Counted from the stretch's first letter, positions 13,994 to 36,045 are shown. The stretch: DNA of 64,000 nt from Nitrospirota bacterium (GCA_049325335.1 JBMOMC010000007.1:259034-323033), one strand, 5' to 3'. The notes: generated by a model not told the origin, from the sequence alone. Translations and numbers: made by a program.

Positions 13994-14054
13994 GTCTGTC
14001 CGGCGCCTCCGCGCGCCGGACGAGCATTGGCATTCCGCGGATACTGGAGCCACC

Positions 14055-14894: not shown

Positions 14895-14926
14895 CGATGT
14901 ATACCAGGCGTCGCGGGAGGAATCGA

Positions 14927-16877: not shown

Positions 16878-17159
16878 CGTGCTCCCCGTTGCGTTGCCAA
16901 ACGAGTCCGGAGAATTCCTCCATCCGTTCCCGGTATCGTTTTCCCTTTCGAACGACAACGCCATGAATACTACATTCTTCCGGCACGCCTGCTTCGGATA
17001 CCACCGGCGACATGGGCGAGTACCCGAACCACCTCATCGACCACGTGGCGGTCGCCGCGCAGATGTCCTCGGCGGATAACCCCTGCGTCGAGGCTGCGAT
17101 TATAATTCTTTTCGGAATTTTTCTACAACGCAACGACTTTCTGAGCGAGGACCTGTTGT

Positions 17160-17936: not shown

Positions 17937-18028
17937 GGAGTCGGTCCGACCGGCAGGATGGCCAAGAACGCACTATCGCCGAAAAGCGAGGACGTCACCA
18001 TGGTTGCGGAATCAATCGCGTTCTGACC

Positions 18029-18983: not shown

Positions 18984-21900
18984 CTACGGATTCACCGTGA
19001 CAACCTGCGTGGCGTCCGTGGCCGAGATGAATCCTGAGGCGCTCACGGACACGGTAGTTGTTCCAGCCCCCACTGGGTCAAACGCCACACCCAATTCCGC
19101 GCCATCCAAAAACGCCGGCGGCGTCGAATAGTGGCCCGGTGTTAGGACCAGGGGGACCGAAGGAGCCCGATTGTCCCGGGTAGCCAATTGTCCAACCGCC
19201 CCGTTACTACTGGTAATGTTCAGCGTCACCCCTGGGAGACCACTTCCCACCCGGACCAGTTGGGCCGCAATGAGCGGACCGCCGCCTTCAGCCGTCACGC
19301 CTGACAACACACGGAAGAAACTGTCAGCGCCACTCGCGACGTGGGTCGGCGTGAGGTCCCTTATTGCAACGGCCGGTTGCACAATGTGTATGGGACCACT
19401 TGTGGCCGGTATGTAGCCGGGGGCAGAAATCGTGAGCTGTCCCGTACCGCGCGCCTCTTCCACGCCCTGGATTGTAAATGTGGAGATCGAGGACGTACCG
19501 CCTGGTATGACCAGCGTAATCGATGAGCTCCCAGTTCGAGGCCATGCCTCTGGTGCAACCAATAGCGTGGGGAGATTACTGGTTACCGTCACCGGCAGCC
19601 CGCCGGTCGGCGCAGTAGCCCCGTTGAGCAGACGAATCAGGAAGCAGCCGGCGCATTCCAGGCCTGCACCCAAACGGAAGTCGCCCCCCCCGAACCCGAA
19701 ATGGACTATCTCCATGGCGAGGGCGGTGCCGACGGTGACGAACTGACTGGCGCCGGTGGTGGAGCCCACGCCGACCGCGCTCGCGGTCACGGTCGTGGTC
19801 TGCCCCGTGGCAGTATTGTCCGGATCAAACGCGATCCCGCCCGTGGCCACGCTCGCCGCCGACTCGCTCTGCCCCGGCGCAATACTCACCTCCTTGGACA
19901 GCCCACTCCCGGTGGTGGTCACCAGCGTCCCGGCTGCGGGCTCGCTGCTCATGACGGTCACGGTCAGTGTGCCCGGCCCGCCCTGCCGTAGGGCTTGCGC
20001 GGTCCCGAACGTGGTCCCGCCCGCACTACTCGGCAATCCCACGCGCACGCCAAACTCATCATTCGCCGCGCCTGGGCTCAGCGTGCTCGCCAAGTTGATC
20101 AGCGTCAGCACCGGCGGCTCGATGGAGACGGCCGGACTCGTGCCGTCGAGGTACCCGGCCGCACTCGCCACCACCTGCACGGGTCCGCTCGCGCCTTCCA
20201 CCCCCTGCAGGCTAAATGCCGTGCTGGTGCTGCCGGCCTGGATGACCACCATGAGGGTTCCACTGCCGCCCCCCGCCGGGATCACCGCTTCGGCCACGCG
20301 CAGGCGCGTAACGTCCGTGCTGGTCAGGGTAACTACGAGCCCGCCCGCGGGCGCGGGTTGGTTACTCGTCACGGTGCAGCACGCGCTCACTTCCAAGCCT
20401 GCCCCCAAGCGGGTCAGGGTTCCGAGATTCACACTCAACGTCGGGCTGGTTACGCTCACCAGTTGGCTCGCCCCCGTGGTGCTGCCGACCCCCGGCGCGC
20501 TCGCCGTGATGGTTGTGATCTCGTTCGCCACCCCATCAGCGGGATTAAACGCCACGCCGCCCGTCGCCACCGTCGCCGAGGAATCGCTCTGGCCCGGCTG
20601 GATCTGGACGAGTTGGCTCGCGCCGCTGCCGCCACTGGTCACCAGGGTCCCCGCCGCCGGGGTACTGGTCGTGACCGTGGCGGTCAGCCCGCCCGGCCCC
20701 CCTTGCCGCAGAGCCTGCGCGGTTCCGAATGTCGTTCCGCCACTGCTCGTCGTGATACCCAGTCGCACACGAAATTCATCATCCGGCGCGGCCGCCGCCA
20801 GGTTTGCGCTCAAATCCACCAGGGTCAGCACGGGCGCTTCCACGCTCACCGCCGGGCTCGTTCCCGCGGTGTGGCCCGTCGCGGTCGCCGTCACGCTCGC
20901 ACTGCCCACCGCGCTCTCCACGCCTTGCAGGCTGAACGCCGCGCTGGTCCCGCCTTCCGGAATCGTCACCACCACGCTGCTCCCACCGCCGCTCCCCGGG
21001 ATTGTGCCCGGGGCCACCAACAGCCGCGTGGCATCGCTGCTCGTGAGGGTCACCGCCACGCCCCCGGCCGGCGCCGGTTGATTGGCGATCACGCTACAGC
21101 AGGCCGCCACTTCTAAGCCCGCACCGATGCGGGTCACGGTCCCCAAATTCACGCTCAGTCGCGGCGGCGCCGGCGTCACGCTCACCACTTGGCTCGCCCC
21201 CGTGGCCGCCGTGAATCCGGCAATCAGCGCGGTCACCGTCGTGCTGCCGCCAGTCTCCATCGGCCGAAACGCCATGCCCCCCGCCGCCACGGTGGTCCGC
21301 GTCTCGTAATAGGTCGTCGTGATCGACGCCGCCGCGCTCGCCCCCGCCCCCGCGTTCGTCACCACTTGCCCCGCGCTCGGGTCACTGCTCGTCACGGTCA
21401 CGCTGATCGCGCCCGGCGCGCCCCGCCGCACGGGTTGCGGGCTCACAATCCCATCCGGACGAATCGGCCCGATACGGACCCGAAACACATTGTCCGCCCC
21501 GCCGCCCGCTTGCGGACTGGTCAACGCAACGATCGTGTACCCCGGCGTCACCACGCTGATCGGCCGGCTCGTCGCCGGGGTAAACCCCGTGGCCGTGGCC
21601 GTCACCGTCGTCAGCCCGGTCACGCCTTCCAGCCCCTGCAGGCTAAACGTGGTCGTACTGGCTCCCGCCGCAATCGTCACCACGGTCGACGCCGTGCCCC
21701 CTGTGCTCGGCACGGTCGCGCCCGCCACCAACAACCGCGTCGGATCGTTGCTCGTGAGCGTGACTCCCAACCCGCCAGCCGGCGCGACCGCCCCATTCAA
21801 TAACCGCACCTGTAAACAACTCCCGCACTCCAAACCGGATCCGACGAGAAATGGCTCCGTCGTAAAATACCGAATCTCCATGGCGAGGGCGGTGCCGACG

Positions 21901-24152
21901 GTGACGAACTGACTGGCGCCGGTGGTGGAGCCCACGCCGACCGCGCTCGCGGTCACGGTCGTGGTCTGCCCCGTGGCAGTATTGTCCGGATCAAACGCGA
22001 TCCCGCCCGTGGCCACGCTCGCCGCCGACTCGCTCTGCCCCGGCGCAATACTCACCTCCTTGGACAGCCCACTCCCGGTGGTGGTCACCAGCGTCCCGGC
22101 TGCGGGCTCGCTGCTCATGACGGTCACGGTCAGTGTGCCCGGCCCGCCCTGCCGTAGGGCTTGCGCGGTCCCGAACGTGGTCCCGCCCGCACTACTCGGC
22201 AATCCCACGCGCACGCCAAACTCATCATTCGCCGCGCCTGGGCTCAGCGTGCTCGCCAAGTTGATCAGCGTCAGCACCGGCGGCTCGATGGAGACGGCCG
22301 GACTCGTGCCGTCGAGGTACCCGGCCGCACTCGCCACCACCTGCACGGGTCCGCTCGCGCCTTCCACCCCCTGCAGGCTAAATGCCGTGCTGGTGCTGCC
22401 GGCCTGGATGACCACCATGAGGGTTCCACTGCCGCCCCCCGCCGGGATCACCGCTTCGGCCACGCGCAGGCGCGTAACGTCCGTGCTGGTCAGGGTAACT
22501 ACGAGCCCGCCCGCGGGCGCGGGTTGGTTACTCGTCACGGTGCAGCACGCGCTCACTTCCAAGCCTGCCCCCAAGCGGGTCAGGGTTCCGAGATTCACAC
22601 TCAACGTCGGGCTGGTTACGCTCACCAGTTGGCTCGCCCCCGTGGTGCTGCCGACCCCCGGCGCGCTCGCCGTGATGGTTGTGATCTCGTTCGCCACCCC
22701 ATCAGCGGGATTAAACGCCACGCCGCCCGTCGCCACCGTCGCCGAGGAATCGCTCTGGCCCGGCTGGATCTGGACGAGTTGGCTCGCGCCGCTGCCGCCA
22801 CTGGTCACCAGGGTCCCCGCCGCCGGGGTACTGGTCGTGACCGTGGCGGTCAGCCCGCCCGGCCCCCCTTGCCGCAGAGCCTGCGCGGTTCCGAATGTCG
22901 TTCCGCCACTGCTCGTCGTGATACCCAGTCGCACACGAAATTCATCATCCGGCGCGGCCGCCGCCAGGTTTGCGCTCAAATCCACCAGGGTCAGCACGGG
23001 CGCTTCCACGCTCACCGCCGGGCTCGTTCCCGCGGTGTGGCCCGTCGCGGTCGCCGTCACGCTCGCACTGCCCACCGCGCTCTCCACGCCTTGCAGGCTG
23101 AACGCCGCGCTGGTCCCGCCTTCCGGAATCGTCACCACCACGCTGCTCCCACCGCCGCTCCCCGGGATTGTGCCCGGGGCCACCAACAGCCGCGTGGCAT
23201 CGCTGCTCGTGAGGGTCACCGCCACGCCCCCGGCCGGCGCCGGTTGATTGGCGATCACGCTACAGCAGGCCGCCACTTCTAAGCCCGCACCGATGCGGGT
23301 CACGGTCCCCAAATTCACGCTCAGTCGCGGCGGCGCCGGCGTCACGCTCACCACTTGGCTCGCCCCCGTGGCCGCCGTGAATCCGGCAATCAGCGCGGTC
23401 ACCGTCGTGCTGCCGCCAGTCTCCATCGGCCGAAACGCCATGCCCCCCGCCGCCACGGTGGTCCGCGTCTCGTAATAGGTCGTCGTGATCGACGCCGCCG
23501 CGCTCGCCCCCGCCCCCGCGTTCGTCACCACTTGCCCCGCGCTCGGGTCACTGCTCGTCACGGTCACGCTGATCGCGCCCGGCGCGCCCCGCCGCACGGG
23601 TTGCGGGCTCACAATCCCATCCGGACGAATCGGCCCGATACGGACCCGAAACACATTGTCCGCCCCGCCGCCCGCTTGCGGACTGGTCAACGCAACGATC
23701 GTGTACCCCGGCGTCACCACGCTGATCGGCCGGCTCGTCGCCGGGGTAAACCCCGTGGCCGTGGCCGTCACCGTCGTCAGCCCGGTCACGCCTTCCAGCC
23801 CCTGCAGGCTAAACGTGGTCGTACTGGCTCCCGCCGCAATCGTCACCACGGTCGACGCCGTGCCCCCTGTGCTCGGCACGGTCGCGCCCGCCACCAACAA
23901 CCGCGTCGGATCGTTGCTCGTGAGCGTGACTCCCAACCCGCCAGCCGGCGCGACCGCCCCATTCAATAACCGCACCTGTAAACACGTCACGCACTCCAGC
24001 CCCGCCCCGACGAGAAATGGCTCCGTCGTAAAATACCGAATCTCCATGGTGGATTGGGCAAAAGCGGACCCGCTCAACGGCGGGAACGCGGTGGTCAGAC
24101 CTGCCATCGTCAACATACCCAACATCCATCCGGTCAGCCGCGTCAGTCGCAT
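18984..24152 (-). CDS. 1722-aa secreted Thr/Gly/Val/Ala-rich repeat protein (adhesin/matrix-like, seven ~240-aa modules)
   Basis: Signal peptide (…SAFA|Q). Modules start G[AS]GLE-CxxC or GAGLEVxACC, contain AP[AT]GGxxVT[LV]TS and [FT]x[LI]QG[LV]E, and end near QxVxV. Confidence 0.8.
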   Translation of the reverse strand: MRLTRLTGWMLGMLTMAGLTTAFPPLSGSAFAQSTMEIRYFTTEPFLVGAGLECVTCLQVRLLNGAVAPAGGLGVTLTSNDPTRLLVAGATVPSTGGTASTVVTIAAGASTTTFSLQGLEGVTGLTTVTATATGFTPATSRPISVVTPGYTIVALTSPQAGGGADNVFRVRIGPIRPDGIVSPQPVRRGAPGAISVTVTSSDPSAGQVVTNAGAGASAAASITTTYYETRTTVAAGGMAFRPMETGGSTTVTALIAGFTAATGASQVVSVTPAPPRLSVNLGTVTRIGAGLEVAACCSVIANQPAPAGGVAVTLTSSDATRLLVAPGTIPGSGGGSSVVVTIPEGGTSAAFSLQGVESAVGSASVTATATGHTAGTSPAVSVEAPVLTLVDLSANLAAAAPDDEFRVRLGITTSSGGTTFGTAQALRQGGPGGLTATVTTSTPAAGTLVTSGGSGASQLVQIQPGQSDSSATVATGGVAFNPADGVANEITTITASAPGVGSTTGASQLVSVTSPTLSVNLGTLTRLGAGLEVSACCTVTSNQPAPAGGLVVTLTSTDVTRLRVAEAVIPAGGGSGTLMVVIQAGSTSTAFSLQGVEGASGPVQVVASAAGYLDGTSPAVSIEPPVLTLINLASTLSPGAANDEFGVRVGLPSSAGGTTFGTAQALRQGGPGTLTVTVMSSEPAAGTLVTTTGSGLSKEVSIAPGQSESAASVATGGIAFDPDNTATGQTTTVTASAVGVGSTTGASQFVTVGTALAMEIRYFTTEPFLVGSGLECGSCLQVRLLNGAVAPAGGLGVTLTSNDPTRLLVAGATVPSTGGTASTVVTIAAGASTTTFSLQGLEGVTGLTTVTATATGFTPATSRPISVVTPGYTIVALTSPQAGGGADNVFRVRIGPIRPDGIVSPQPVRRGAPGAISVTVTSSDPSAGQVVTNAGAGASAAASITTTYYETRTTVAAGGMAFRPMETGGSTTVTALIAGFTAATGASQVVSVTPAPPRLSVNLGTVTRIGAGLEVAACCSVIANQPAPAGGVAVTLTSSDATRLLVAPGTIPGSGGGSSVVVTIPEGGTSAAFSLQGVESAVGSASVTATATGHTAGTSPAVSVEAPVLTLVDLSANLAAAAPDDEFRVRLGITTSSGGTTFGTAQALRQGGPGGLTATVTTSTPAAGTLVTSGGSGASQLVQIQPGQSDSSATVATGGVAFNPADGVANEITTITASAPGVGSTTGASQLVSVTSPTLSVNLGTLTRLGAGLEVSACCTVTSNQPAPAGGLVVTLTSTDVTRLRVAEAVIPAGGGSGTLMVVIQAGSTSTAFSLQGVEGASGPVQVVASAAGYLDGTSPAVSIEPPVLTLINLASTLSPGAANDEFGVRVGLPSSAGGTTFGTAQALRQGGPGTLTVTVMSSEPAAGTLVTTTGSGLSKEVSIAPGQSESAASVATGGIAFDPDNTATGQTTTVTASAVGVGSTTGASQFVTVGTALAMEIVHFGFGGGDFRLGAGLECAGCFLIRLLNGATAPTGGLPVTVTSNLPTLLVAPEAWPRTGSSSITLVIPGGTSSISTFTIQGVEEARGTGQLTISAPGYIPATSGPIHIVQPAVAIRDLTPTHVASGADSFFRVLSGVTAEGGGPLIAAQLVRVGSGLPGVTLNITSSNGAVGQLATRDNRAPSVPLVLTPGHYSTPPAFLDGAELGVAFDPVGAGTTTVSVSASGFISATDATQVVTVNP
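19708..24049. repeat. Near-perfect tandem duplication with 2166-bp period inside the large repeat gene
   Basis: Identical off-frame ORFs recur exactly 2166 bp apart (19756/21922, 19995/22161, 21082/23248, 21189/23355). The differences I could see lie at 21819-21840 versus 23985-24006. Confidence 0.9.
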
Positions 24153-24252: not shown

Positions 24253-25347
24253 CTAGTACGATTGGCCCCGCAATAGGTCAAAAATCCACCGGGCTCGCTC
24301 CACCAGCCGTTCCTCGGCAAAACGAAAGCCCTGGTACCACACCGGCTTGAATACTAAATCGTAATAACCCGTCAAAAACACTCCCTCGGCCCGAAAACCG
24401 CTTTTAAACGTATAGATCGAGTAGGCCGGCGAGTCCGCTTGCGGAGGCCAGTCCGTCCCGGTTCCACCAAAATCAAACGTGGCAGCACCCTTGCGTTTGG
24501 CCCATCGCAGACCTTCCCACCAGAGCGCTTCATTCGGGTGCAGTGACCGTGCCGCGTGGATCAACCCGGTGTACAGCAGCCAAGCCCGATTCCCCACCGC
24601 AATGGTCAGAAACCCGGCAATGATTTCCCCGTCCTTCTCCGCCACCAGCAATGTCCCGTGTCCGGGTTTGATGACGTGCCGCCACAACAGTTCGTAGTAC
24701 GCGGGGCTGCGCACCACAAACCCCCAGCGGTCTCCGACCTCGGTCATGATGGTGCGGAACTTTTCCATTTCACGCTCGTCGCAGGCCTCCCGAATCACCA
24801 CGCCCCGTTTCGCCGCGCCGCGGATGTGCCGCTGATGGGTATCGCGCATCCGCTTGATCAGATCGGTTTCTGACGGACGAAGATCCATCCAACTCACGAT
24901 TCGAGGATCATTCAGCGACGACCACTTCTTATCCGCGAGATGGCGAAATCCCGCCTGATGCAACCGTGCGCGCGCGTCCGCGTCGTCGTCAACGAGATCG
25001 GGATCCACACGAAGGAACACGGATCGATACCGTCCGGCAACATCTCGCACGCCGTCGAGGAGACAGTTCAACGCCTCGGCATCCTTGAGGTCTACGACCG
25101 GCCCCCTGGGACTGCACAAGAAGGTCAATGATGTCTTGGGAATCTTGCGCACTAAGAGCGATGCGGCACCGCACAGTTGGCCGTTCCGCTCCACTCCCAG
25201 TCTGACTGTGTGCGTGCCTTCATAGGCCACCACCTCGCCCCACTCGTAAAGCTGTTTAAAATGCGGGTGCGGTGAGCCCGCCACCCACGCATTGAAGCGA
25301 TCGCGGTCCCCCTCGCCTAACTCGATCAGTTCCACGGGTGCGCTCAT
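24253..25347 (-). CDS. FemABX-family (GNAT-fold) aminoacyl/peptidyl transferase
   Basis: HFKQLYEWG, PRGPV, FLRVDP, R.IR.A.KRGV, PNEALWW, FDFGG and FKSGF. Start at 25347 or 25371. Confidence 0.8.
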   Translation of the reverse strand: MSAPVELIELGEGDRDRFNAWVAGSPHPHFKQLYEWGEVVAYEGTHTVRLGVERNGQLCGAASLLVRKIPKTSLTFLCSPRGPVVDLKDAEALNCLLDGVRDVAGRYRSVFLRVDPDLVDDDADARARLHQAGFRHLADKKWSSLNDPRIVSWMDLRPSETDLIKRMRDTHQRHIRGAAKRGVVIREACDEREMEKFRTIMTEVGDRWGFVVRSPAYYELLWRHVIKPGHGTLLVAEKDGEIIAGFLTIAVGNRAWLLYTGLIHAARSLHPNEALWWEGLRWAKRKGAATFDFGGTGTDWPPQADSPAYSIYTFKSGFRAEGVFLTGYYDLVFKPVWYQGFRFAEERLVERARWIFDLLRGQSY

Positions 25348-25372
25348 ATGACCCTTTGGGCGGTTCCCCACA

Positions 25373-25633
25373 TCACCGGCGAGACCCGAACGCCACCACC
25401 AGCAACACGCCCACCACGCCCACTATCAGGGCGATCACGGCCAACATGCCGGCCCCGCCGACCGACCCGCTGAGTTGATCAAAAAAGGAACTCGTAGCGG
25501 CGGCCGCCGGAGCGGCAGCCTTTCGCGGAGCCTCACTATGGTCGTGGCCCTCGTGGGCCCACAGCAACGCCGTCTGGAGGAACCACCCCATCGACCACAG
25601 TCCAACCAATAACCGCTTGCGCTGGTTCTTCAT
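25373..25633 (-). CDS. Small exported membrane-anchored protein with N-terminal HEGHDH motif
   Basis: AGAGGA RBS, signal peptide ending LWA, mature N-terminus HEGHDH, Ala-rich linker, SGSVGGAG, TM helix and terminal RR. Confidence 0.65.
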   Translation of the reverse strand: MKNQRKRLLVGLWSMGWFLQTALLWAHEGHDHSEAPRKAAAPAAAATSSFFDQLSGSVGGAGMLAVIALIVGVVGVLLVVAFGSRR

Positions 25634-25703
25634 TTTTTTCCTCTGTGTGCAGGCCCGTGGGGCGATCACCACGCCACGGACAGACATACAGTTATGCGAA
25701 ACA

Positions 25704-26378
25704 CTACAACGATAGGCGGGGGCGAATCTGGACTCCCAACACCCTCACGTTGAAGAAGGTGCTCACTCGGCGAAATCCCACTCGCATCAGCGCCATTTCC
25801 AGTCCGAGCCGAAACGCCGCGCCGTGATCCACGACGTGTCCATACACGCGCTGATATCCGCGCCGCGCCAGTTCCTGCGCCATCACGGCATTCGTGGTGC
25901 CGTACAACCCGTGGCCCCGGAACGCCTCGAAGGTGTACGCATGTTTGAGTTCGGCTTCCTGGGGCGCGAGGCGGACGAAACGATTCGGGATCGAATGATC
26001 GTAGATCCAGGCGATGTGCGCGGGCTGCCCCTCCCACCACGCCACGAACGGCTCGGCGCCGTCGATCTGATCGCGATAGAATTCGCTCCGAGTGCCTTCC
26101 GGCGTCTGGCGAAACCGCGCCAAATCGCTCGGCGTCGCCCGTCTGATTTCGGCTCGCGGATCGGGCGGCGGCGCGGTGTAGCCGGCCCGCAAGTCAATGG
26201 CCAACAATGACACGCGTTGGCGACAGAAGAGGAACGGACCAAGCGCCTCGCGAAAACCTTGTAGGCCGCCATCCTGCAACAGCCTCCGCGCCGATCGCAT
26301 CATTCGACCGAACACACCCGGCCGAGCCGGCCGGGATTCGGCGATGGGATGCGCCTCCAGCAAACGATCGCGGCTCAT
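25704..26378 (-). CDS. GNAT-family N-acyltransferase
   Basis: YTFEAFRGHGLY acyl-CoA-binding motif A and C-terminal RVGF; ATAG-type overlap with the dehydrogenase stop. Confidence 0.7.
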   Translation of the reverse strand: MSRDRLLEAHPIAESRPARPGVFGRMMRSARRLLQDGGLQGFREALGPFLFCRQRVSLLAIDLRAGYTAPPPDPRAEIRRATPSDLARFRQTPEGTRSEFYRDQIDGAEPFVAWWEGQPAHIAWIYDHSIPNRFVRLAPQEAELKHAYTFEAFRGHGLYGTTNAVMAQELARRGYQRVYGHVVDHGAAFRLGLEMALMRVGFRRVSTFFNVRVLGVQIRPRLSL

Positions 26379-27520
26379 AGGCCCAGTCGACTCGCGATAA
26401 GGTTGCGCTGAATATCCGAGGTGCCGGAATAGATACGACTCCCGATCGCGTCCCGCACCTCCCGCTCCAGTTCGGATTCGACCTTGTACCCAGAACCGCC
26501 GTGGATCTGCAGCGCATCCAGGCTGGACTGCACGTAGCCTTCGCTGACGACCAGCTTGGTGATCGCAGACTCCAGCAACGCCGACTTACCCTCCCGCTTC
26601 AACCAGCCCACGTGATAGAGCAACAACCGCGAGGTTTCCAAGCGGACTTTCATCTCGGCGATCCGATGGGAGACGGCCTGAAACGAGCCAATGGCCCGGC
26701 CGAACTGTTGTCGTCGTTTCGCATAGTCAATACAGCGGTCGAGTTGGCGCGCCATTCCGCCCACCGCGCTCGCCATGATGAGACTCCGTTCCCAATCCAT
26801 CGAGGAGTTAAAAATCGTGGTCCCGGCGCCGGGTTGTCCCAACATATTCTCTGCCGGAATGTCGCAATCGACCAACTCCAGTTCCGACGCCAGACCGGTT
26901 CGCAGCCCCATCTTGTTCAGCGTCTTGCCCACCCGCAGGCCCGGAGCGGAGCGATCGATCAGAAACGCGGAGATGCCTGCAAAACGTTTGCGCGGATCCG
27001 TGGAGGCAAATACCACGAACACGTCCGCCACCGGACCATTGCAGACGAACACCTTTCTCCCATTAAGCCGGAACCGGTCGCCCACACGCTCGGCCGTTGA
27101 CGTGAGGCTGAAGGCGTCCGATCCCGATTCGGCCTCGGTGATGGCATGTCCGGCGATCAGGGACCCGTCGCTCAGTCCCGGCAAATACCGTCGTTTCTGG
27201 GGCTCCGTGCCGAACTTGAGGATGGCCACTACGCACGAGCAAATTTGCGCGCTGATGGAAAAGAGCAGTCCGTTGTCGCGGCATCCGTACCCGAGGGCTT
27301 CCATGGCCAACACCAATCGGAGCGCGTCCGCGCCTTGTCCGCCGTATTCCTTGGGAATCAACAGACCCTGAATCCCGAATCGGGCGCACTTGTTCCACGC
27401 CTCGCGGGAGAAGAGGCCCTCCGCATCCCGCTGAATCAGGTTTTCCCCCAACTCCCGTTGCGCAAACGCGACGACCGCGTCCCGATACCGTTGTTCCTCT
27501 TCCGTCCAACCGAATTCCAT
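26375..27520 (-). CDS. Acyl-CoA dehydrogenase-family L-prolyl-PCP dehydrogenase (PltE/RedW/AnaB-like)
   Basis: EYGGQG, LGYGCRDNGLLFS, HAITEAESGSD, QFGRAIGSFQAV and IYSGTSDIQRN; adjacent to a carrier protein and an A domain. Confidence 0.85.
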   Translation of the reverse strand: MEFGWTEEEQRYRDAVVAFAQRELGENLIQRDAEGLFSREAWNKCARFGIQGLLIPKEYGGQGADALRLVLAMEALGYGCRDNGLLFSISAQICSCVVAILKFGTEPQKRRYLPGLSDGSLIAGHAITEAESGSDAFSLTSTAERVGDRFRLNGRKVFVCNGPVADVFVVFASTDPRKRFAGISAFLIDRSAPGLRVGKTLNKMGLRTGLASELELVDCDIPAENMLGQPGAGTTIFNSSMDWERSLIMASAVGGMARQLDRCIDYAKRRQQFGRAIGSFQAVSHRIAEMKVRLETSRLLLYHVGWLKREGKSALLESAITKLVVSEGYVQSSLDALQIHGGSGYKVESELEREVRDAIGSRIYSGTSDIQRNLIASRLGL

Positions 27521-27527
27521 TCCGCCG

Positions 27528-27776
27528 TTATCTCCCGCTCCGCGCGTTCACCAACGCAACGATCGAGCTGATGGTTTCAAAATGATCCGGGACTACCTCT
27601 TCATCCGGCAACACGATCCGAAATTCTTGCTCCAAGAACGCCAGGAGTTTGACCAACCCCAATGAGTCGAGAATGCCTCGTTCCAGCAACGAGTCGTGAT
27701 CACCGACCGCGCCTTGACTCTTCTCGTGCATCAATTCCTTGACGATGAACTCCCGGACTCGTTCCGTCACGCCCAT
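27528..27776 (-). CDS. Stand-alone acyl/peptidyl carrier protein
   Basis: 82 aa, acidic, GILDSL phosphopantetheine-attachment Ser; AAGGAG RBS before ATG 27776. Confidence 0.9.
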   Translation of the reverse strand: MGVTERVREFIVKELMHEKSQGAVGDHDSLLERGILDSLGLVKLLAFLEQEFRIVLPDEEVVPDHFETISSIVALVNARSGR

Positions 27777-27813
27777 TCCATTCTCCTTTACCATCCGGCC
27801 TCCGCCTTGACCT

Positions 27814-29499
27814 TCAACCGACGCCGCCATGTTGCCGCGGCGTGTCGGCCAACGCTTTGCGGTCCACCTTTCCGGTGGAGGTTCTCGGCAGCTCGGCATG
27901 TATCTCCACGGTCTCCGGCACCATGTACGACGGGAGTCGGTCCGCGCAGATTTTCTTCACGTCGGCCTCGGTCAGTGATCCGGAAGAATCCACCACCACG
28001 CAGGCCTTGATGCGATTGCCGAACTCCTCATCCGGCACCGCCACCGCCGCCGCTTCTTTGATATGCGGACTGGCGTACAGAGCGGTTTCAATTTCCCCCA
28101 GCTCGATCCGATACCCGCGGCTCTTGATCATATGGTCTCGGCGGCCGACCAAGAGGTAGTTGCCGTCCGCATCCAATGTGACGATGTCGCCGGTGCGGTA
28201 GAGTCGTTCGGGAAAATTCGACTGCAAGGGATTGCCCACCACGACTTTGTCGGTCTTGGCAGGATCGCCCCAGTATCCCTTCATCACCAAAGGCCCACGG
28301 ACATAGAGTTCCCCTTCTTCACCCGCCTGAATCAGCCGCCCCCCTTCCGAGAGCGCGAACACCTCCGTGTTGGCGCACGCCTTGCCAATCGGGATCGGCT
28401 GCACGCGATCCGTATCCAGCGTCGGCACGCGGTAATACGTGCAGACATTAGTTTCCGTGGGGCCGTAAAGGTTATAGAACTCCGTATGCGGAATCGCGGC
28501 CATGAGCGATCGCAAATACTTGACGGGAAACACCTCGCCGGCAAACAAGACGGTGCGGAGCCGTTCAAACGAGAAGCGACCGAGTTGGCCGCGCTGCAAC
28601 AAGAGAATGAGCGCGGACGGCACCGAGTACCAAATCGTGATCGCCTGCCGCTGAATAAACTCCGCCAACCGAATCGGAAAGGTCGAGAGCCCCTCCGGGA
28701 CCAGCACCACGGCACCGCCGGTCTTGATGGCGCAGAAGATATCCAAAATCGAGAGATCAAAATGCAGGGGTGCGTGGTTGGACAACCGATCTTCGGCGGT
28801 GACTGCAAACGTGGAGACCGCCCATTGGATAAAGACCATCGCGTGGCGATGGCTCAACATGACACCTTTGGGTTCGCCCGTGGACCCGGAGGTATACAGG
28901 ATGTACGCAAGATCGTCTTCCACCCCCTGGGCGGACTCCCGGCTCGCCGGCTCCGGCGGTCCACCCTCCTCACCGGCTTGCGGCCAGGCCGCGACACGCA
29001 CGCCGGACCACGACCGCTCCATCCTCGCGGTATCCCCGTCACCGACCACGATTGATTCGGGGTATCCCTCATGTTCAGCGGCCGCCGCCAAGGCGTTTAG
29101 CTTGAGGCGAGCACTGATCAGGACGCGCATGCGGCAGTTCTTGATGATATACGCAATGCGCCGCGGGGGACTGTTGGGGTCGAGCGGGACATACACGCCA
29201 CCCGCGTCGAGGATGCCGAGGAGACTGATCACGGACTCGATGGACTTCGGCAGATAGATCCCGACCCGGTCTCCCCGACGGACACCGAGGTGGCGCAACC
29301 GTCCGGCCAGTCGGCAGACGGCTTCGGCCAGCTCTGCGTAGCTCAGGGTTCGATCGTTCAACACCACCGCCGGCCGATCAGGGAACCGAGCCGCACTCTG
29401 CTCAAGCAGATGGGACAGCAGATACGCCTCGGACGGCGCCGCGGTCCCCGCGACCCGCGCCACCTCGAGCCGATCCTGGTGCCGTTGGCTCATGGTCAT
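27814..29499 (-). CDS. Stand-alone amino-acid adenylation enzyme, predicted L-proline-activating (PltF/RedM/CloN4-like)
   Basis: YTSGSTGEPKG, HFDLS, NLYGPTE, YRTGD, GYRIELGEIE and PRTSTGK. Pocket residues read by hand as DLLYLALVCK. Start at 29499 overlaps the upstream stop. Confidence 0.85.
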   Translation of the reverse strand: MTMSQRHQDRLEVARVAGTAAPSEAYLLSHLLEQSAARFPDRPAVVLNDRTLSYAELAEAVCRLAGRLRHLGVRRGDRVGIYLPKSIESVISLLGILDAGGVYVPLDPNSPPRRIAYIIKNCRMRVLISARLKLNALAAAAEHEGYPESIVVGDGDTARMERSWSGVRVAAWPQAGEEGGPPEPASRESAQGVEDDLAYILYTSGSTGEPKGVMLSHRHAMVFIQWAVSTFAVTAEDRLSNHAPLHFDLSILDIFCAIKTGGAVVLVPEGLSTFPIRLAEFIQRQAITIWYSVPSALILLLQRGQLGRFSFERLRTVLFAGEVFPVKYLRSLMAAIPHTEFYNLYGPTETNVCTYYRVPTLDTDRVQPIPIGKACANTEVFALSEGGRLIQAGEEGELYVRGPLVMKGYWGDPAKTDKVVVGNPLQSNFPERLYRTGDIVTLDADGNYLLVGRRDHMIKSRGYRIELGEIETALYASPHIKEAAAVAVPDEEFGNRIKACVVVDSSGSLTEADVKKICADRLPSYMVPETVEIHAELPRTSTGKVDRKALADTPRQHGGVG

Positions 29500-30584
29500 G
29501 ACGCGAGTCCTTGCGCCATGGTCGCGGCTAGATCCGCCGCCTTGCGCTGCTGAAGGTCCCGAAAATACCCCGCGCGTTTCGCAATACGTTGCTGGAAGGC
29601 GTCGATGTTCGCGGCAAGTTCGTCCAGCAAATCCACCGCGGCGTCGAGCGAGAGGCGGTCCGTGCGAATACTGAACCGTTCCAATTCCATGGACATCATG
29701 AAATCCAAACACTTCGGTTGATACTCCAACATGACCGACGGGGTGTTCGCGCACAACGCCAATACCACCGAGTGCAGTTTCTCCCCCACAAAGACATCGC
29801 ACGTTCGCAGACACTGCATCGTTGCTTCCACCGAGTGATAGTCGCGAAACACCGACACCGCACCGGGGTCATTGATCCGCTTGACCGCTTCCTGGATATA
29901 GGGCAGATCGGCGTCCCACATCGGCACAAACACGGCCCGATACCCCAGGCCGATCATCGTGGTCACCAGTTGTACCACAAACTCCAGAATGCGTTCTTCA
30001 TCGCCCCACACGTTTCCGTACGCAGTCCCAATGTTAACCCCGAGGAGCTGTGTTCCGCGTTTCGGAGCGATCGTGACGTCCGCGAACGTCAGGGCCGTAT
30101 CACCGACGATCTCCGCGCTTGGGTACCCGGCCTGCGCGAGCAGGTGCTGGGACAACGGGCCCCGAACCCCGACGAATCGACACCGTTCCAGACACTCGAT
30201 CCATTCATGCAGGCCATCCGGCTCGCCGCGTTTCTGCATCCCAAACACCGGGTCAGCCACGCCGGTCCCCAGTGCAAACGATGGTTGGTAGCGGCTCTGA
30301 GCCGCTCGGAGCGCGTCCAGAATAGCGCGTTTATTGATGAGGGTTCCGCCACCCAGGATCGTGGCCACGAAGACTTTCCGTCTCATGATCTGCTCCAGCC
30401 ACACAGTTTTGGCCGAATATTTAAAGGGCAAGAGCCGGTGGCGTGGGAACAACCGTTGAAAGGCCAGGTACAACGCCTCATCTCCGAGGTTGCCGTGCCC
30501 GACCCATCCTAAGTAACCGATCTTGGGCGCTGAGGGAAGGACATACTGCCAATTCCCGCTCAGGATGGACAGCGTCATCCTCAT
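29496..30584 (-). CDS. Polysaccharide pyruvyl transferase family protein
   Basis: GHGNLGDEA, LGGGTL, VGVRGPLS, GDTAL, KLHS and YQPK. Confidence 0.8.
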   Translation of the reverse strand: MRMTLSILSGNWQYVLPSAPKIGYLGWVGHGNLGDEALYLAFQRLFPRHRLLPFKYSAKTVWLEQIMRRKVFVATILGGGTLINKRAILDALRAAQSRYQPSFALGTGVADPVFGMQKRGEPDGLHEWIECLERCRFVGVRGPLSQHLLAQAGYPSAEIVGDTALTFADVTIAPKRGTQLLGVNIGTAYGNVWGDEERILEFVVQLVTTMIGLGYRAVFVPMWDADLPYIQEAVKRINDPGAVSVFRDYHSVEATMQCLRTCDVFVGEKLHSVVLALCANTPSVMLEYQPKCLDFMMSMELERFSIRTDRLSLDAAVDLLDELAANIDAFQQRIAKRAGYFRDLQQRKAADLAATMAQGLAS

Positions 30585-32119
30585 CCGCCGAGTTCCACCG
30601 GTGCGTCAACCGGCCGTCCCTCGCGACGCCCGGAGTCATCGGTCCCTGGTGACGCGGTGACTCCTCGCATCGCCGCCAGCAGATTCCCGGGTGTGATCAT
30701 CGCGCGCTCCTCCGCGGTGAGAAACCACCGATGCACCACGACCAAGAAACACGCCATGAGGCCGGTATTCACGACCAGTGATCCGACGAGAGAGGGCATC
30801 GCCACCAAACGGCTCAGGACGTAGATCCCCACCCCCGTCGCCAGCAGCCCGGACTGTTTCGCCCATCCGTACTCGATCGGATAGAGCGTTTGCGAATACC
30901 GGTAGACCAACAGAAACCGCAAGGCCCACGCGCTCATCGTGGCCAGGCCAGCCCCATAGGCCCCATACCGGGGCACGAGGATCAGGAGTAAAGCCATCGC
31001 CGCTCCGGCTGAAATCAAGGCGGAGGTGGCCATGTATCGGCTTCGGTCCTTGAGAAAGAGCCCGATATTACAAAACGCCGCCCAAATCTGAAGGATGTAG
31101 ATCACGAGAATCAGCGGAACGATGTTCGCAGCCCCGCGATACGAGGGGGCGGACATGACCCCCAGAAAATCCCTCACGAACAAGCAGATGACAAGCGACA
31201 GGGCCACGATAACGATATTGCAGTAAAAAAATACCTGCTGAAAGATCGCCCGGCCGTCGTCGCGCTTCGCGATCTCAAACCGCCGCGACTCCCAGATCAA
31301 ATTGAAGGGCATGAACGCCACGGTCGACAAGATGAACCCGAATTTGTAGGCCAAGGCGTACAGTCCGACCGTCTCCAGATCGCTAAAAATATTGAGTACG
31401 TATCGGTCGGCGGACGTCATCAGGAATCCACCCAGCGAAACAAAGATAAATGGATAGCCGAAACGGAGCATGCTCCGACATTTCTCCGGGGAAAATCGCC
31501 ATCCAATCCGACGAACCGTGTAGTAGAGGACGTAGCACCCGACGCCCGCCTCGGCGACCAGAGCGCTGTAGAGCGCGCCGCGCACGTCCCAATCCAGGAA
31601 TACGATGAAATACACGTTCAGCGCGACCTGGACCGCCAGTTTACATAAGTTGACCCCCACAAATCGCAGGGAGTCCTGCACGGCTCGGATATACATTAGG
31701 GGAATTACCGCCATGCCTGACTGGAAAAAATAGACCGCAAACAAGACCCGGAAATAGCCGGCGTAGTCCGACCGGGCGAACACGAGCTGGGCGAGCCGGG
31801 GAGACAGCCAGATTCCCACCAAGGCGGTCACCGCGGCGATGCCCACCATCATGACAATGACGGTGCTGATCACCTCCTGTTTCTCGCGGGGGTCGTCGTA
31901 TTGTGAATAGAATTTAAAGACCGTCGAGACGAGGCCCACCGCCGCGATCATCGCGATGATTTCGATCGTGGTCCCCAGCAGTTCCAGCACGCCATATTCG
32001 TGCGGATCCAGATACCGGGTGTATACCGGCAACATGATGAATCCAGTGGCCTTACTGGCCACAATACCGACCCCGTAGATCACCGTATGTTTGCCCAACA
32101 TTCTGATTTCGGTAGCCAT
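30581..32119 (-). CDS. wzx: Wzx-type oligosaccharide flippase
   Basis: Multi-TM protein with LPVYTRYLDPHEYG, DRYVL...VGLYALA and LVPRYGAYGA. Confidence 0.85.
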   Translation of the reverse strand: MATEIRMLGKHTVIYGVGIVASKATGFIMLPVYTRYLDPHEYGVLELLGTTIEIIAMIAAVGLVSTVFKFYSQYDDPREKQEVISTVIVMMVGIAAVTALVGIWLSPRLAQLVFARSDYAGYFRVLFAVYFFQSGMAVIPLMYIRAVQDSLRFVGVNLCKLAVQVALNVYFIVFLDWDVRGALYSALVAEAGVGCYVLYYTVRRIGWRFSPEKCRSMLRFGYPFIFVSLGGFLMTSADRYVLNIFSDLETVGLYALAYKFGFILSTVAFMPFNLIWESRRFEIAKRDDGRAIFQQVFFYCNIVIVALSLVICLFVRDFLGVMSAPSYRGAANIVPLILVIYILQIWAAFCNIGLFLKDRSRYMATSALISAGAAMALLLILVPRYGAYGAGLATMSAWALRFLLVYRYSQTLYPIEYGWAKQSGLLATGVGIYVLSRLVAMPSLVGSLVVNTGLMACFLVVVHRWFLTAEERAMITPGNLLAAMRGVTASPGTDDSGRREGRPVDAPVELGG

Positions 32120-32136: not shown

Positions 32137-34146
32137 TCACGTTTTCGCCAAACTCAGGCCGCCACGCGGTCGAAAGAAAAACTCCACCACGAGATCTCCC
32201 TCAGGAAGCTCATCGAGTTCCATCATCCGATCGCGTTCGGTCAGCATGGTCGCCTGTCCATTCACCCGCGCGGACCACCAGGGGTGGTAGCTGATCTTCA
32301 GGCGAAGCCGATTGCGCGGGACGTTGTTGTGGATCTCGAACACCAAGCGCTCATTGTCAAACGAGACAAGCTTGGCCGGGACCCTTGTTCCCTGCTCAAG
32401 TGCCAGCCATTGAAGATCAGCATCATTGACCTGGAGGACCGAGAACAACCGACGCCGACTCTCATAGACCCGCGTGAACTGTCCCCCGTTGAGTAGCTTC
32501 TGGGTAATCATCGGGTGCCAGACCACGAGATACGAGCAATTGAGCCCTTTCATCAGCTCGTCGACCTGATCGATCGAGCCGAACGGATTGTCGTTCGGAA
32601 ACACCGCGGGTTGGCGGAAGGAAAACTGGGTCTTTAATCGCTGGGTGACGATCGACCCGACTCCGGTCATCTGAGTGGACAACGCGGCCACATTCGCGTA
32701 TCCCCCGTCCAAGAACCCGATGCCCTCGAGCTCCTCATACATCACCCGACTGTTGGACGCCGCAACGTGTTCTTTGACAAAGGCCCACACCCCGGCCATT
32801 TCCTCGTAGATGACCGATTCATCGCTTGTTTTCAGCGCCACGTAGTTCGTGTACGTGGCGTACCGCACGCCGTGTAAGACCGCGAGCACCACCACCGCGA
32901 CCGCGGCATACCGCGCCGACCCGAATCGGCGCAGAATTCCCTGAAGACCGTAGGCTGCCGCCACGATCAGGGCCGCGTTGACGTACAGGACAAACCGGTC
33001 CTGGCGAAAGGCCGCGATCACGCTGTCCCCCCCGCCCACGAAATGCCACGGGCCGATCACGAACAGCACAAAAACCGCCAGAATCCAGGCCGTGTACCGG
33101 AGAAAGACCCCGCGTTCCGCGTCGCGTTCGCCGCGGTCACGCGCAATACCGACCAGCCCCCCTACGGCCAACAGCACCAGCAGACCTTCGGCAAGGTGTT
33201 CGGCCGCGAGCTGGGCGGCCAGCCGCACACCGTCGGAAACCTGGCCGGAACGGACCGCAGGCAATACGTCCTCGACAATCTGCTCGAAGCCGCCGGGGAA
33301 CATGAACCAGGCGGGAAGACGAACCACGAGACCGAGCAAGCCGCCGCTGGAGGCTGGATTCGGGCTCCCCCATCCCGTCTGGCCGACCACTACCGCGGCA
33401 ATCCACCACCCGATCGCGACGCCGGACACCAAAAACGCGCCCACGCCCACGACCAGCGCCCGCCCGGTGATCCCGCGTTTGCGAGTGTAGAAGACAACGG
33501 TTACTGGAATCACGATCGCCAGCAGCGGCCACGTCAGCGCATCGGTCAAGGCCGTGATCACCGTCAACGCGCCAAGGGTCGCCGCCTGGAGAAGCGTCAG
33601 GCTCCTGGTCAACCAACGATCGCAATAATGGACCAGCAGGAGCAATGGGCCGAGCGCGAGGTAGTGAATCCACATCCCTTGCAACGGCTGGAGAAGCTGA
33701 TAGGTCAACGCAAGATACAACCCCACCGCGCCGCAAGCCGCGAGGCGGTCCACGCGCTCGGACAACGTCACCCAGAGCGCGATGGCAGGAAACACAAACG
33801 AGAAAAAGACCATCAGCTTGTACAAGACGGCCAGCGAAATACTCGTCGCCTGGTTCAGGGCCACCAAGACCAGCACACTTAGCGGCGCGGGGACCAACGG
33901 AGAGAAGGCGGGAAAACCGCCGAAATCGCTCTCAAACCATCCGACCGCACCGCCCGCTGCATGCAATCGCTCCGCTACCTGGGAAACCAGGGCGAAGTAA
34001 AACGGATGATCCCCGGTAATCAACAAACCGGGACCGAACATCGGGTGCAAATACACACCCCCGACGCCCAGGATCGCGGCAACCGCGACGAGGTTCCAGC
34101 GCCTCATCCCCACGCGACACGGCATCCCGGTTTCAAACCGACCCAT
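32137..34146 (-). CDS. Polytopic membrane protein, PTPS-related/YfhO-like (GT-C-type glycosyltransferase candidate)
   Basis: GDH after TM1, W....FGGFP.F loop, about 12 TM helices and a soluble C-terminus with SYHPWWSARVNG. Confidence 0.55.
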   Translation of the reverse strand: MGRFETGMPCRVGMRRWNLVAVAAILGVGGVYLHPMFGPGLLITGDHPFYFALVSQVAERLHAAGGAVGWFESDFGGFPAFSPLVPAPLSVLVLVALNQATSISLAVLYKLMVFFSFVFPAIALWVTLSERVDRLAACGAVGLYLALTYQLLQPLQGMWIHYLALGPLLLLVHYCDRWLTRSLTLLQAATLGALTVITALTDALTWPLLAIVIPVTVVFYTRKRGITGRALVVGVGAFLVSGVAIGWWIAAVVVGQTGWGSPNPASSGGLLGLVVRLPAWFMFPGGFEQIVEDVLPAVRSGQVSDGVRLAAQLAAEHLAEGLLVLLAVGGLVGIARDRGERDAERGVFLRYTAWILAVFVLFVIGPWHFVGGGDSVIAAFRQDRFVLYVNAALIVAAAYGLQGILRRFGSARYAAVAVVVLAVLHGVRYATYTNYVALKTSDESVIYEEMAGVWAFVKEHVAASNSRVMYEELEGIGFLDGGYANVAALSTQMTGVGSIVTQRLKTQFSFRQPAVFPNDNPFGSIDQVDELMKGLNCSYLVVWHPMITQKLLNGGQFTRVYESRRRLFSVLQVNDADLQWLALEQGTRVPAKLVSFDNERLVFEIHNNVPRNRLRLKISYHPWWSARVNGQATMLTERDRMMELDELPEGDLVVEFFFRPRGGLSLAKT

Positions 34147-34149
34147 CCG

Positions 34150-36045
34150 TCACCCACGCTCAACGTAGCGGTGGTGCCACATCGAAAACATCAGGAGCAA
34201 CCACAGTCTGTTCTCGTGGTTGTGACGGCACGAGAGATGTTCCGACACCAGGGTGGCGACATACCGCTGGTTGAACAGGCCCAGCCGCTTCACCCGGGTC
34301 TCCGAAAGCCACTCCATCAGCGCCGGACGCAGCGCGCCGCGCAGCCACGCGGCCAGCGGCACGGAGAACCCCCGCTTCTTGCGGGATAAAATCGCGGCGG
34401 GCAGGATCGGGGCGAACGCTTGTTTGAGCAAGTACTTCTTGGTCAACCCGCGCATCTTCAGGTGCGACGGGATCGTCGCCGAAAATTCCAGGAGGCGATG
34501 ATCGATGAACGGGGCTCTGACCTCCAGCGAATGGGCCATACTGAGCCGGTCCGAGAGCACCAACAGATCGTCCGGGAGATACACCGCCAGATCGCAGAAC
34601 ATCATTTGGGTCAACGGATCACACGATCGGGTTCGTGAAAATGCCTGCGCGAACGCGGTCTCGGACGCGCGCGAGCTCGCTCCGTTCCGCGCGTCGCGAT
34701 TGAACAGACTCCGCATCTCGTCCGCGCGATACACCGCGGCGTAATTGTGATACCGCTCCTGAATCGTCCCCTCGGCTCCGGCCACGAACCGCTTCGCGCG
34801 ATCGATGATGGGCCATCCGCGTTTGGAATCGGGAAGGTGTTCGACCAGCGGACGAATGATCCGCTCGCGAAGCACGCGCGGCAGCGCGTGGTACCGCTCG
34901 GCCAACAACACGCCCACGTAACGCTCGTACCCGGCCCCCACCTCGTCCCCTCCCACCCCGGAGAGCGCCACCGTCACGTGTTCGCGCGCGAGTTTCGACA
35001 CCACGTAGTTGGGAATCACCGAAGAGTCGCCGAACGGCTCGTCGAACGACCGAACGATCGCGGACAACAGATCCTCGTTGGGGGGACCGAGAAGCACCTC
35101 GTGATGGTCCGTGCCGAACCGATCCGCGACCAACCGCGCGTACGGTCGCTCATCGTAAAACGCGCCCTCCTCGCCGTAGCCGATGGTAAAGGTCTTGACC
35201 GGGTGCGGGGTGAGCGCGGCCATCTCCGCGACAATCGCGCTCGAATCAATGCCCCCGCTCAAAAACGCGCCGACCGGCACGTCGCTGACCAATCGCAGGC
35301 GCACGGCCTCTCGAAACTGGACGCGGAACTCCTCGATGATGTCCTGCTCGGTCCGATCCTCGCGGGGCTGCGGGGACAGATCCCAATAACGGCGGCACGA
35401 CCACTTGCCTTGCTCCGCGACCAACATCTCGCCGGGCAACACCCGGCGGATCCCCCGGAAAATCGTGCGGTCGCCCGCGATATAGCCGTACTGAAAAAAG
35501 TCATCAACCGCGTCCCAGTCGAGCGCGCGGTCCTGCGCGGGATCCTGCAACAAACACTTGATCTCGGAGCCGAACCGCAACGTGCGCGGCCCGACCGCAT
35601 AGTAGAGCTGTTTGACCCCGACGCGGTCGCGCAGCAACACCAGTCGCTTGCGTTTGACGTCCCAGATCGCGACGCCGAACATGCCGCGCAAGTGCTGCAC
35701 GCACTCCAGCCCGTATTCCTCATACAGGTGTACGATCGACTCGGTATCGGTCTGCGTGGCGTAACGATGCCCTCGTTGTTCCATCAACGCGCGCAGCTCG
35801 CGATAGTTGTAGATCTCGCCGTTAAACACGGTCCAGACCGTCCCGTCCTCGTTCCGAATGGGTTGGCGCCCGGTCGCAAGGTCGATCACTTTGAGGCGCC
35901 GAATGCCGAGACCGATCTCCCCTTCAAGATAAAACCCTTCCTCATCGGGCCCACGGTGCCGGATCACGTCGGTCATAGACTGGAGCGCGCCGCGATCGCC
36001 CAATGGTTCGCCGCGCAGATCCAAGATGCCGGAAATCCCGCACAC
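34150..36045 (-). CDS. asnB: Asparagine synthase (glutamine-hydrolysing) family amidotransferase
   Basis: N-terminal MCGI, HRGPD, FNGEIYN, LSGGIDSS, SGVGGDE and E.RAPF. In EPS loci these usually amidate the polymer. Confidence 0.93.
   Translation of the reverse strand: MCGISGILDLRGEPLGDRGALQSMTDVIRHRGPDEEGFYLEGEIGLGIRRLKVIDLATGRQPIRNEDGTVWTVFNGEIYNYRELRALMEQRGHRYATQTDTESIVHLYEEYGLECVQHLRGMFGVAIWDVKRKRLVLLRDRVGVKQLYYAVGPRTLRFGSEIKCLLQDPAQDRALDWDAVDDFFQYGYIAGDRTIFRGIRRVLPGEMLVAEQGKWSCRRYWDLSPQPREDRTEQDIIEEFRVQFREAVRLRLVSDVPVGAFLSGGIDSSAIVAEMAALTPHPVKTFTIGYGEEGAFYDERPYARLVADRFGTDHHEVLLGPPNEDLLSAIVRSFDEPFGDSSVIPNYVVSKLAREHVTVALSGVGGDEVGAGYERYVGVLLAERYHALPRVLRERIIRPLVEHLPDSKRGWPIIDRAKRFVAGAEGTIQERYHNYAAVYRADEMRSLFNRDARNGASSRASETAFAQAFSRTRSCDPLTQMMFCDLAVYLPDDLLVLSDRLSMAHSLEVRAPFIDHRLLEFSATIPSHLKMRGLTKKYLLKQAFAPILPAAILSRKKRGFSVPLAAWLRGALRPALMEWLSETRVKRLGLFNQRYVATLVSEHLSCRHNHENRLWLLLMFSMWHHRYVERG

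Follow-up and report, generated by a model that had tools for sequence, protein, structure and literature searches.

What is a set of enzymes known from antibiotic and toxin pathways doing in an operon for a surface glycan? The question is raised by a stretch of 64,000 nucleotides from a Nitrospirota bacterium (GCA_049325335.1 JBMOMC010000007.1:259034-323033; hereafter the window), in which a stand-alone adenylation (A) enzyme, a peptidyl carrier protein (PCP), an oxidase of the acyl-CoA dehydrogenase (ACAD) fold and a GNAT-fold acyltransferase are encoded towards the end of an operon that spans 34 kb of the minus strand. The first three genes, here called the trio, had been picked out in a sequence-only reading of the window as a tightly packed A domain, GILDSL carrier and ACAD homologue, and all of them were found where it had placed them. 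In our interpretation, to which a probability of about 0.6 is given, a proline-derived acyl group, probably pyrrole-2-carbonyl, would be moved to the glycan of the locus, most likely by the GNAT protein. Window features given below lie on the minus strand unless marked otherwise.

The A enzyme (27814-29499, 561 residues, TIGR01733 above cut-off) has the pocket DLLYLALVCK (D248, L249, L252, Y291, L318, A320, L344, V352, C353 and K544), exactly as it had been read by hand. In a comparison of the pocket region with the PDB, PltF (6O6E) was the best match with 180 bits, followed by PigI with 126 and DltA with 100, and all seven positions visible in the alignment with PltF are identical, the final three lying outside it; the PltF-type match given in the sequence-only reading is thereby borne out. 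The pocket also agrees at nine of ten positions with the one read for L330, whose gene is AnaC-type. The code DLFYLALVCK occurred 39 times and DLLYLALVCK 15 times in an alignment of 99 relatives, duplicates counted, a set that is biased because many of its members had been drawn by a motif that includes two residues of the pocket. Since the string DLLYLALVCK was not found in the literature searched, the link to PltF is taken from the PDB alignment. Clustering with DltA had been named as an outcome that would count against the proline reading, and a DltA identity was rejected on the basis of the bit scores above and of DltA models that stayed below cut-off (291 against 560 and 297 against 476). 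An identity as exosortase-A-associated ligase was likewise rejected, TIGR03098 being the top NCBIfam score with 384 at a cut-off of 592. The pocket argues strongly that the A enzyme activates L-proline and loads the carrier.

The carrier (27528-27776, 82 residues, PF00550) has its Ser38 within GILDSL; its start was chosen by Shine-Dalgarno spacing, with an alternative at 27794. Its best PDB matches, 6CXT_A, 2MY5/2MY6, PltL and PigG, are all carriers of pyrrole pathways and came ahead of DltC and fatty-acid acyl carrier protein (ACP); it is of the PltL/Bmp1 type. Of the three carrier domains in the genome, one is the cassette PCP, one the fatty-acid ACP and one part of a fusion with an AMP-ligase on contig C11.

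The prolyl-carrier-protein oxidase (26375-27520, 381 residues) was compared with the PDB, where AnaB scored 420 bits, 6CXT_B 323, PigA 320 and the best ordinary ACAD 281, and with NCBIfam, where it remained below the cut-offs of both PigA (444, cut-off 500) and RedW (412, cut-off 650). Its Glu244 aligns with the catalytic Glu of AnaB, and Ser365 replaces the catalytic Glu of ordinary ACADs. A Glu at this helix-G position was present in 117 of 128 aligned relatives; the eight ordinary ACADs serving as outgroup rows in this 128-row alignment have Gly there and a Glu in the C-terminal loop. As the active-site pattern is the opposite of that of the outgroup, an identity as ordinary ACAD was rejected, and the possibility raised in the sequence-only reading, that the dehydrogenase acts on acyl-CoAs only, is countered by a prolyl-oxidase pattern. 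The Glu is essential in AnaB and Bmp3 (PMC10849742). The oxidase very probably acts on prolyl-S-PCP.

For the phylogeny 55 of the 128 oxidases, hand-picked to cover the FastTree groups, were used in a maximum-likelihood tree (LG+G4) with the Shimodaira-Hasegawa-like approximate likelihood-ratio test (SH-aLRT) as the sole support measure; L006 was excluded from the alignment because of a stop within its frame. The window oxidase fell into a clade of six members (SH-aLRT 99), separate from the AnaB clade (100) and from the clade of PigA and polyketide synthase (PKS) oxidases (99), on a backbone that is unresolved. Its five clade mates (L001, L002, L190, L205 and L369) are all accompanied by glycan genes, three of them by a hydrolase pair, and gave no ketosynthase (KS), condensation-domain or halogenase match. 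AnaB-type oxidases (L330, L346, L191, L327) are sister to cyanobacterial halogenase-linked oxidases (L345, L351, L334, L340) with SH-aLRT 96, and at least one of the latter (L345) sits among glycan genes.

If the trio served a small-molecule assembly line, partners would be sought in the genome, which is 99% complete in 45 contigs and contains the trio in a single copy. No match was obtained there for the condensation domain (PF00668) or type III PKS (PF00195), no halogenase was found, and no PKS ketosynthase, the PF00109 matches being FabF and a thiolase only. A weak KS match on C37 was dismissed as this thiolase, which lies in a beta-oxidation operon, and a second ketoacyl synthase III (KAS III), a FabH-like sequence in unrelated context, was dismissed as a PKS partner. 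Near this second FabH-like gene a divergent pair was seen by eye (G000:C43, 143724-145289), consisting of a LuxR-type sensor-like gene and an autoinducer-synthase-like acyltransferase gene. KS, condensation and halogenase genes were also absent from the 30 locus proteins scanned. The earlier statement that the window has no KS, condensation or halogenase gene is in agreement with these searches, and a cognate PKS or nonribosomal peptide synthetase (NRPS) elsewhere in the genome, which would have counted against that reading, was not found.

The GNAT-fold protein (25704-26378, 224 residues) gave no Pfam or NCBIfam match and no PDB sequence match, and its identity is therefore based on a language-model search and a predicted fold (Atlas GNAT score 0.96). 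The model (pLDDT 81.6) was superposed on 5KF1 with Z 13.0 and root-mean-square deviation (rmsd) 9.0 over 198 aligned residues and on 3TT2 with Z 12.6 and rmsd 2.9 over 142, with concordant results from Foldseek, and among its structural look-alikes are two clusters in which a carrier is fused to a GNAT, PF00550 being present in 63% of the members of one and 94% of the other. Twelve relatives of 60-97% identity were collected; one relative came from metagenomes, two of the 300 other phylum genomes contain one (in one case weak and fused), and none was confirmed in the search of the genome contig collection. Context is available for a single close relative, that of L288 (69% identical): there the genes follow one another in the order O-ligase, PCP, GNAT, the last two overlapping, and the PCP is roughly 50% identical to the cassette carrier. 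Relatives of the operon's radical SAM gene, of one Acetyltransf_6 gene and of the Fem gene lie on the same 18-kb contig, which has no A enzyme or oxidase. A complex prediction of GNAT and PCP scored 0.01 and was not used either way. The FemX/FemAB-like protein further downstream (24253-25371, 372 residues; PF02388 with 122.6 bits, FemX model with 84 bits under cut-off) has relatives near GNAT relatives in L288 (51%) and L292 (34%). The sequence-only reading had the trio followed by a GNAT and a FemABX gene, whose products would transfer the acyl group onto the polysaccharide or a surface glycoprotein. Both genes are present, with an additional open reading frame (ORF) of 86-104 residues between them; the enzymology and a GNAT candidate stand, the Fem protein looks FemX-type and is the weaker candidate of the two, and transfer itself is an inferred step. 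Hydrolase-pair and thioesterase queries had no match in the window's genome, and the GNAT would thus occupy the slot that a hydrolase pair fills in the nearest oxidase relatives.

A search for the trio in other glycan loci had been proposed, and the trio recurs there. A motif scan yielded at least 120 stretches, 80 of them with flanks, from which 38 were dropped (shorter than 13 kb or without oxidase); a profile score of at least 500 defined near-type oxidases, which gave 26 near-type and 16 distant trios among the matches listed, labelled with tblastn markers and with Pfam on 108 of 182 ORFs (near group) and 91 of 125 (distant group). Among these matches, glycan genes accompany 17 of the 26 near-type trios, an envelope-type acyltransferase 22 and either of them 24, as against one of the 16 distant trios with glycan genes or such an acyltransferase, a contrast that is overstated by an unknown amount, since near-type loci had supplied the markers and several of the rows are related to one another. 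A halogenase accompanies seven of the 26, and a KS or C domain seven of the 16. The acyltransferase slot is filled by unrelated folds: GNAT, hydrolase pair, MBOAT-SGNH, AT3, LpxL-like and hexapeptide (LbH), where the membrane protein with SGNH-like tail is presumably an MBOAT, judging by its motifs. Proline-type trios stand among glycan genes in two named strains, Microvirga sp. VF16 (L371) and Anabaena sp. UHCC 0451 (L345). On a plasmid of the cultured Microvirga strain (L371:6877-15512) a membrane acyltransferase-SGNH fusion, a carrier, a proline-type A enzyme, an oxidase and GT4 genes adjoin Wzc and a priming transferase. Four acidobacterial polysaccharide loci (L168, L170, L188, L230) carry the trio together with further stand-alone A-domain and NRPS-like genes, and for these a small-molecule product is harder to exclude.

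Within the phylum the oxidase family was found in 12 of 301 genomes, the window's own included, and context was retrieved for all 11 others. Glycan genes surround the oxidase in 10 of the 11, the contig of G145 (4 kb) being too short, and no KS or condensation domain was detected in the 11 contexts with the marker set used. In eight of the 11 the immediate neighbour of the PCP gene is of the GNAT or GNAT-like kind, either a tandem GNAT with Pfam support (G001, G191, G216, G273) or a GNAT-like family without it (G126, G136, G199, G211); in G243 a hexapeptide acyltransferase takes this place, and in the two remaining contexts the carrier lies at a contig end. Pockets of other types (DMVNLAMSSK, DMFNLA[LM]SSK, DLFNHSISSK) were read in six of the A enzymes, so that these relatives, which are 49-55% identical, probably load another substrate. 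In two genomes of the same class (G043, G047) glycan genes surround a proline-type trio that is accompanied by a halogenase and a hexapeptide acyltransferase. In this glycan locus (L087:11623-14616 in G043, also in G047) an MFS transporter fused to a halogenase-like domain was observed beside the free halogenase and the trio. An arginase-family gene lies between carrier/GNAT and oxidase in L315:7570-13399, L316:6584-12827 and L317:4399-7667; the pocket DLFNHSISSK was read in L315 and L316, and the three modules may load a non-proline residue. Ornithine cyclodeaminase-like genes stand beside the trio in L008, L183 and L227. In the genus, two of four genomes have the oxidase (G000, G001), in different clades; it was not found in G002, whose corresponding locus holds other carrier-ligase genes, or in G003, which has no carrier-ligase genes in 60 kb.

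From gene identities, active-site residues and contexts we infer the acceptor, the oxidation state and the transferase as follows. The sole phosphopantetheinyl transferase (PPTase) of the genome would prime Ser38 of the carrier. The A enzyme would then load L-proline, and the flavin oxidase, with Glu244 as base, would oxidise prolyl-S-PCP, probably as far as pyrrolyl-2-carbonyl-S-PCP; a pyrroline is the less likely outcome. The translationally coupled GNAT is predicted to acylate a nucleotide sugar or the lipid-linked repeat at an amino group, in the cytoplasm and before Wzx flipping. We lean slightly towards the GNAT as the transferase, the alternatives being the Acetyltransf_6 or Fem proteins. 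The decorated repeat would finally be polymerised or ligated onto exosortase-sorted surface proteins.

Several observations weigh against this proposal. The PCP-GNAT trios of the same phylum, with their non-proline pockets, support the architecture but not the proline chemistry. AnaB itself falls within the broad oxidase group, a KS or condensation domain accompanies four of the 26 near-type trios among the matches listed, and rows within the samples are not independent owing to kinship. The GNAT keeps a loop, RGHGLY, that we take to be of the acyl-CoA type, and it may be a plain acetyltransferase using acetyl-CoA. A 29% relative of it in G199 sits with a Fem gene about 33 kb from the trio of that genome, the second PCP-adjacent GNAT-like family is only weakly comparable to it (hhalign probability 14%), and the nearest oxidase relatives use the hydrolase pair instead of a GNAT. 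Furthermore, the single PPTase is AcpS-sized, and two Sfp-type PPTase queries were unmatched in the genome.

Three other explanations have to be weighed. The module could acylate a small molecule or lipid, such as a glycolipid, an aminolipid or a secreted amino-sugar conjugate, with the glycan operon as mere host. In clorobiocin it is a small molecule whose sugar accepts the acyl group (PMC11218499), some near-type trios (L178, L234, L220) have LpxL-like acyltransferases as neighbours and show no glycan gene in the stretches retrieved around them, and trios come and go within the genus. We consider this unlikely, given that the cassette is translationally coupled to the pyruvyl transferase downstream of the flippase, that the partners across lineages include AT3 and MBOAT-SGNH, which are typical of glycan modification, and that no MFS or RND exporter was present among the 30 locus proteins scanned. 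A much poorer prospect is that the trio is unconnected with the glycan, being either a passenger or what is left of a pyrrole-antibiotic cluster, or else releasing pyrrole-2-carboxylate in free form. The GC content at third codon positions (GC3) of the cassette, 0.70-0.76, is slightly below the genome mean of 0.79, although within about 1.5 standard deviations of it. The distribution is patchy, and ChmF provides a known case of an N-hydroxypyrrole acid being released in thioesterase-like fashion (PMC10849742, the chalkophomycin paper). Against this stand intact frames throughout, retained active-site residues, the unmatched thioesterase and hydrolase-pair queries, and a glycan association that recurs in separate clades and phyla.

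The remaining alternative shares its acceptor with the proposed pyrrole decoration and differs in chemistry: the glycan would receive a two-electron product (a pyrroline or a ring-opened or modified form) or a ring altered by the radical SAM protein, transferred by an Acetyltransf_6, Fem or unlinked enzyme. The closest solved structure is that of AnaB, whose product is pyrroline-5-carboxyl-AnaD (PMC3252866). Radical SAM, Acetyltransf_6 and Fem genes accompany the PCP-GNAT pair in L288, and the genome has no halogenase that would require a pyrrole. The window oxidase, however, lies outside the AnaB clade, whose sister group is mostly halogenase-linked, and PltA-type halogenases act on carrier-bound pyrrole. 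A pyrroline thioester is moreover unstable without capture by a PKS. A carrier-bound pyrrole precedes halogenation in the order of events described, and most characterised members, among them RedW, PltE and Bmp3, carry out a four-electron oxidation (PMC10849742), which leaves the two-electron alternative quite improbable.

The surrounding operon begins at 53616-58140 with genes for the Wza export protein, chain-length determinant, tyrosine kinase and priming glycosyltransferase (TIGR03013 and TIGR01007 above cut-off, TIGR03007 and TIGR03027 below; PF02563, PF02706 and PF02397 matched), followed by a deacetylase and exosortase W (51067-52653, NF038142 above cut-off). Then come two Acetyltransf_6 GNATs, both alternative transferase candidates (49923-51122, PF13480, with a 47% relative in L288; 46453-47589, PF13480), which flank a GT4 gene and a radical SAM/SPASM gene (48863-49903; PF04055, PF13186; a 66% relative adjoins the PCP-GNAT pair in L288). 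After deacetylases, an O-antigen-ligase-like protein is encoded (44031-45566, a putative O-glycosylation ligase; TIGR03097 with 188 bits at a cut-off of 188.1; PF04932), whose real start is probably downstream of the ORF start and whose 50% relative immediately precedes the PCP-GNAT pair in L288. The next gene encodes a FemAB-family PEP-CTERM-system protein (42980-44029, TIGR03019 above cut-off). Four further glycosyltransferases lead to an asparagine-synthase-like amidotransferase (34150-36045; TIGR01536 above cut-off, TIGR03108 below), a multi-pass membrane protein (32137-34146) without Pfam match for which Atlas look-alikes (YfhO, PTPS-related, GT-C) suggest, as a lead, a YfhO/GT-C glycosyltransferase-like identity, a Wzx-type flippase (30581-32119, PF01943) and the polysaccharide pyruvyl transferase (29496-30584, PF04230), a 35% relative of which lies near the closest trio, L001. 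The overlap of this last gene with the A gene (27814-29499), which had been noticed before, is an ATGA, as is that of oxidase and GNAT genes. The cassette then ends with the GNAT, the small ORF and the FemX-like gene. A promoter and terminator scan gave no more sites than shuffled sequences.

The small ORF (25373-25633, 86 residues, or 104 from an upstream ATG at 25687; no Pfam match) has a signal-like N-terminus, a His-rich stretch, a C-terminal Gly-Gly, a hydrophobic helix and an Arg-Arg tail, and this tail presumably resembles protein-sorting signals. Directly after the cassette, 18984-24152 encodes a secreted-looking Thr/Gly/Ala-rich protein of 1722 residues without Pfam or NCBIfam match, a possible glycosylation target; within its gene a sequence recurs, apparently unchanged, 2166 bases further on (identical ORFs 19756-21081 and 21922-23247), owing either to a recent duplication or to an artefact of assembly. 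Secreted proteins with similar C-terminal tails (beta-helix, polysaccharide-lyase-like, fibronectin-III/Ig) are encoded in a cluster at 12005-15973 (plus strand) and 17160-18982, together with a multiheme cytochrome c. A Stf0-type sulfotransferase gene (16050-16964) with a GC3 of 0.46, far under the genome mean, is probably a recent arrival at the locus edge.

Beyond this locus, thiotemplated pyrrole synthesis may be a widespread and unrecognised route of glycan decoration, a view that we hold tentatively and at somewhat less than even odds. One A/PCP/oxidase donor would be combined with at least six unrelated acyltransferase folds, sometimes with a halogenase and with other amino acids; in the window a carrier-dependent GNAT would put pyrrole-2-carbonyl on the glycans of exosortase-sorted proteins, and the starter modules of antibiotics and anatoxin would be offshoots of a larger envelope-modifying family. 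A pyrrolyl-decorated surface glycan was not found in the literature searched, which did not extend to most subscription papers. If the proposal holds, a heteroaromatic substituent of bacterial capsules or surface glycoproteins is produced by enzymes otherwise known only from antibiotic and toxin pathways. Glycan decoration would thereby gain a further class, with likely, though speculative, effects on phage binding, floc or biofilm properties and metal binding, and many stand-alone 'NRPS-like' genes of uncultured lineages would be reassigned.

How does the cassette compare with known systems? Like PltF/PltL/PltE of pyoluteorin, PigI/PigG/PigA and RedM/RedO/RedW of prodiginines and Bmp4/Bmp1/Bmp3 it combines a stand-alone proline A enzyme, a carrier and an ACAD-fold oxidase with catalytic Glu (PMC10849742). 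It differs from them in a genome in which no PKS, NRPS or halogenase was found in its glycan operon and GNAT, and in an oxidase below the PigA and RedW cut-offs and outside the PigA/PKS clade. With AnaC/AnaD/AnaB it shares the closest solved oxidase and a pocket that differs at one of ten positions, but there is no AnaE-G-type PKS, the oxidase is outside the AnaB clade and the carrier is only 28% identical. CloN1-CloN7 of clorobiocin convert proline to the pyrrolyl-carrier, which is followed by transfer to a sugar by CloN1/CloN7 (PMC11218499); a conversion of proline to a pyrrolyl-carrier and a sugar acceptor are likewise proposed here. The cassette is not linked to a KAS III, a second carrier, a B12 methyltransferase or a transferase of the hydrolase fold. 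Only two unlinked FabH-like genes were found in the genome in place of a linked CloN2-type KAS III, none of its three carrier domains is a second linked, CloN1-like PCP, and the acceptor would be a surface glycan instead of an aminocoumarin glycoside. The exosortase-A-associated set of ligase, ACP and hydrolase (TIGR03098) likewise places an AMP-forming enzyme and a carrier in an exosortase polysaccharide locus, and the TIGR03098-like ligase of G002 in the same genus has a different pocket and no oxidase. The Dlt system is a carrier-protein route that acylates an envelope polymer. Compared with DltA/B/C/D, the cassette has a proline-type pocket and an added oxidase, and no DltB- or DltD-like protein (MBOAT, DltD) was matched among the 30 locus proteins. 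The cassette is thus a known type II prolyl-carrier module that belongs to none of the known pathways, because their downstream partners are missing. Most plausibly, it works like CloN3-5 with a transferase added and with a Dlt-like purpose.

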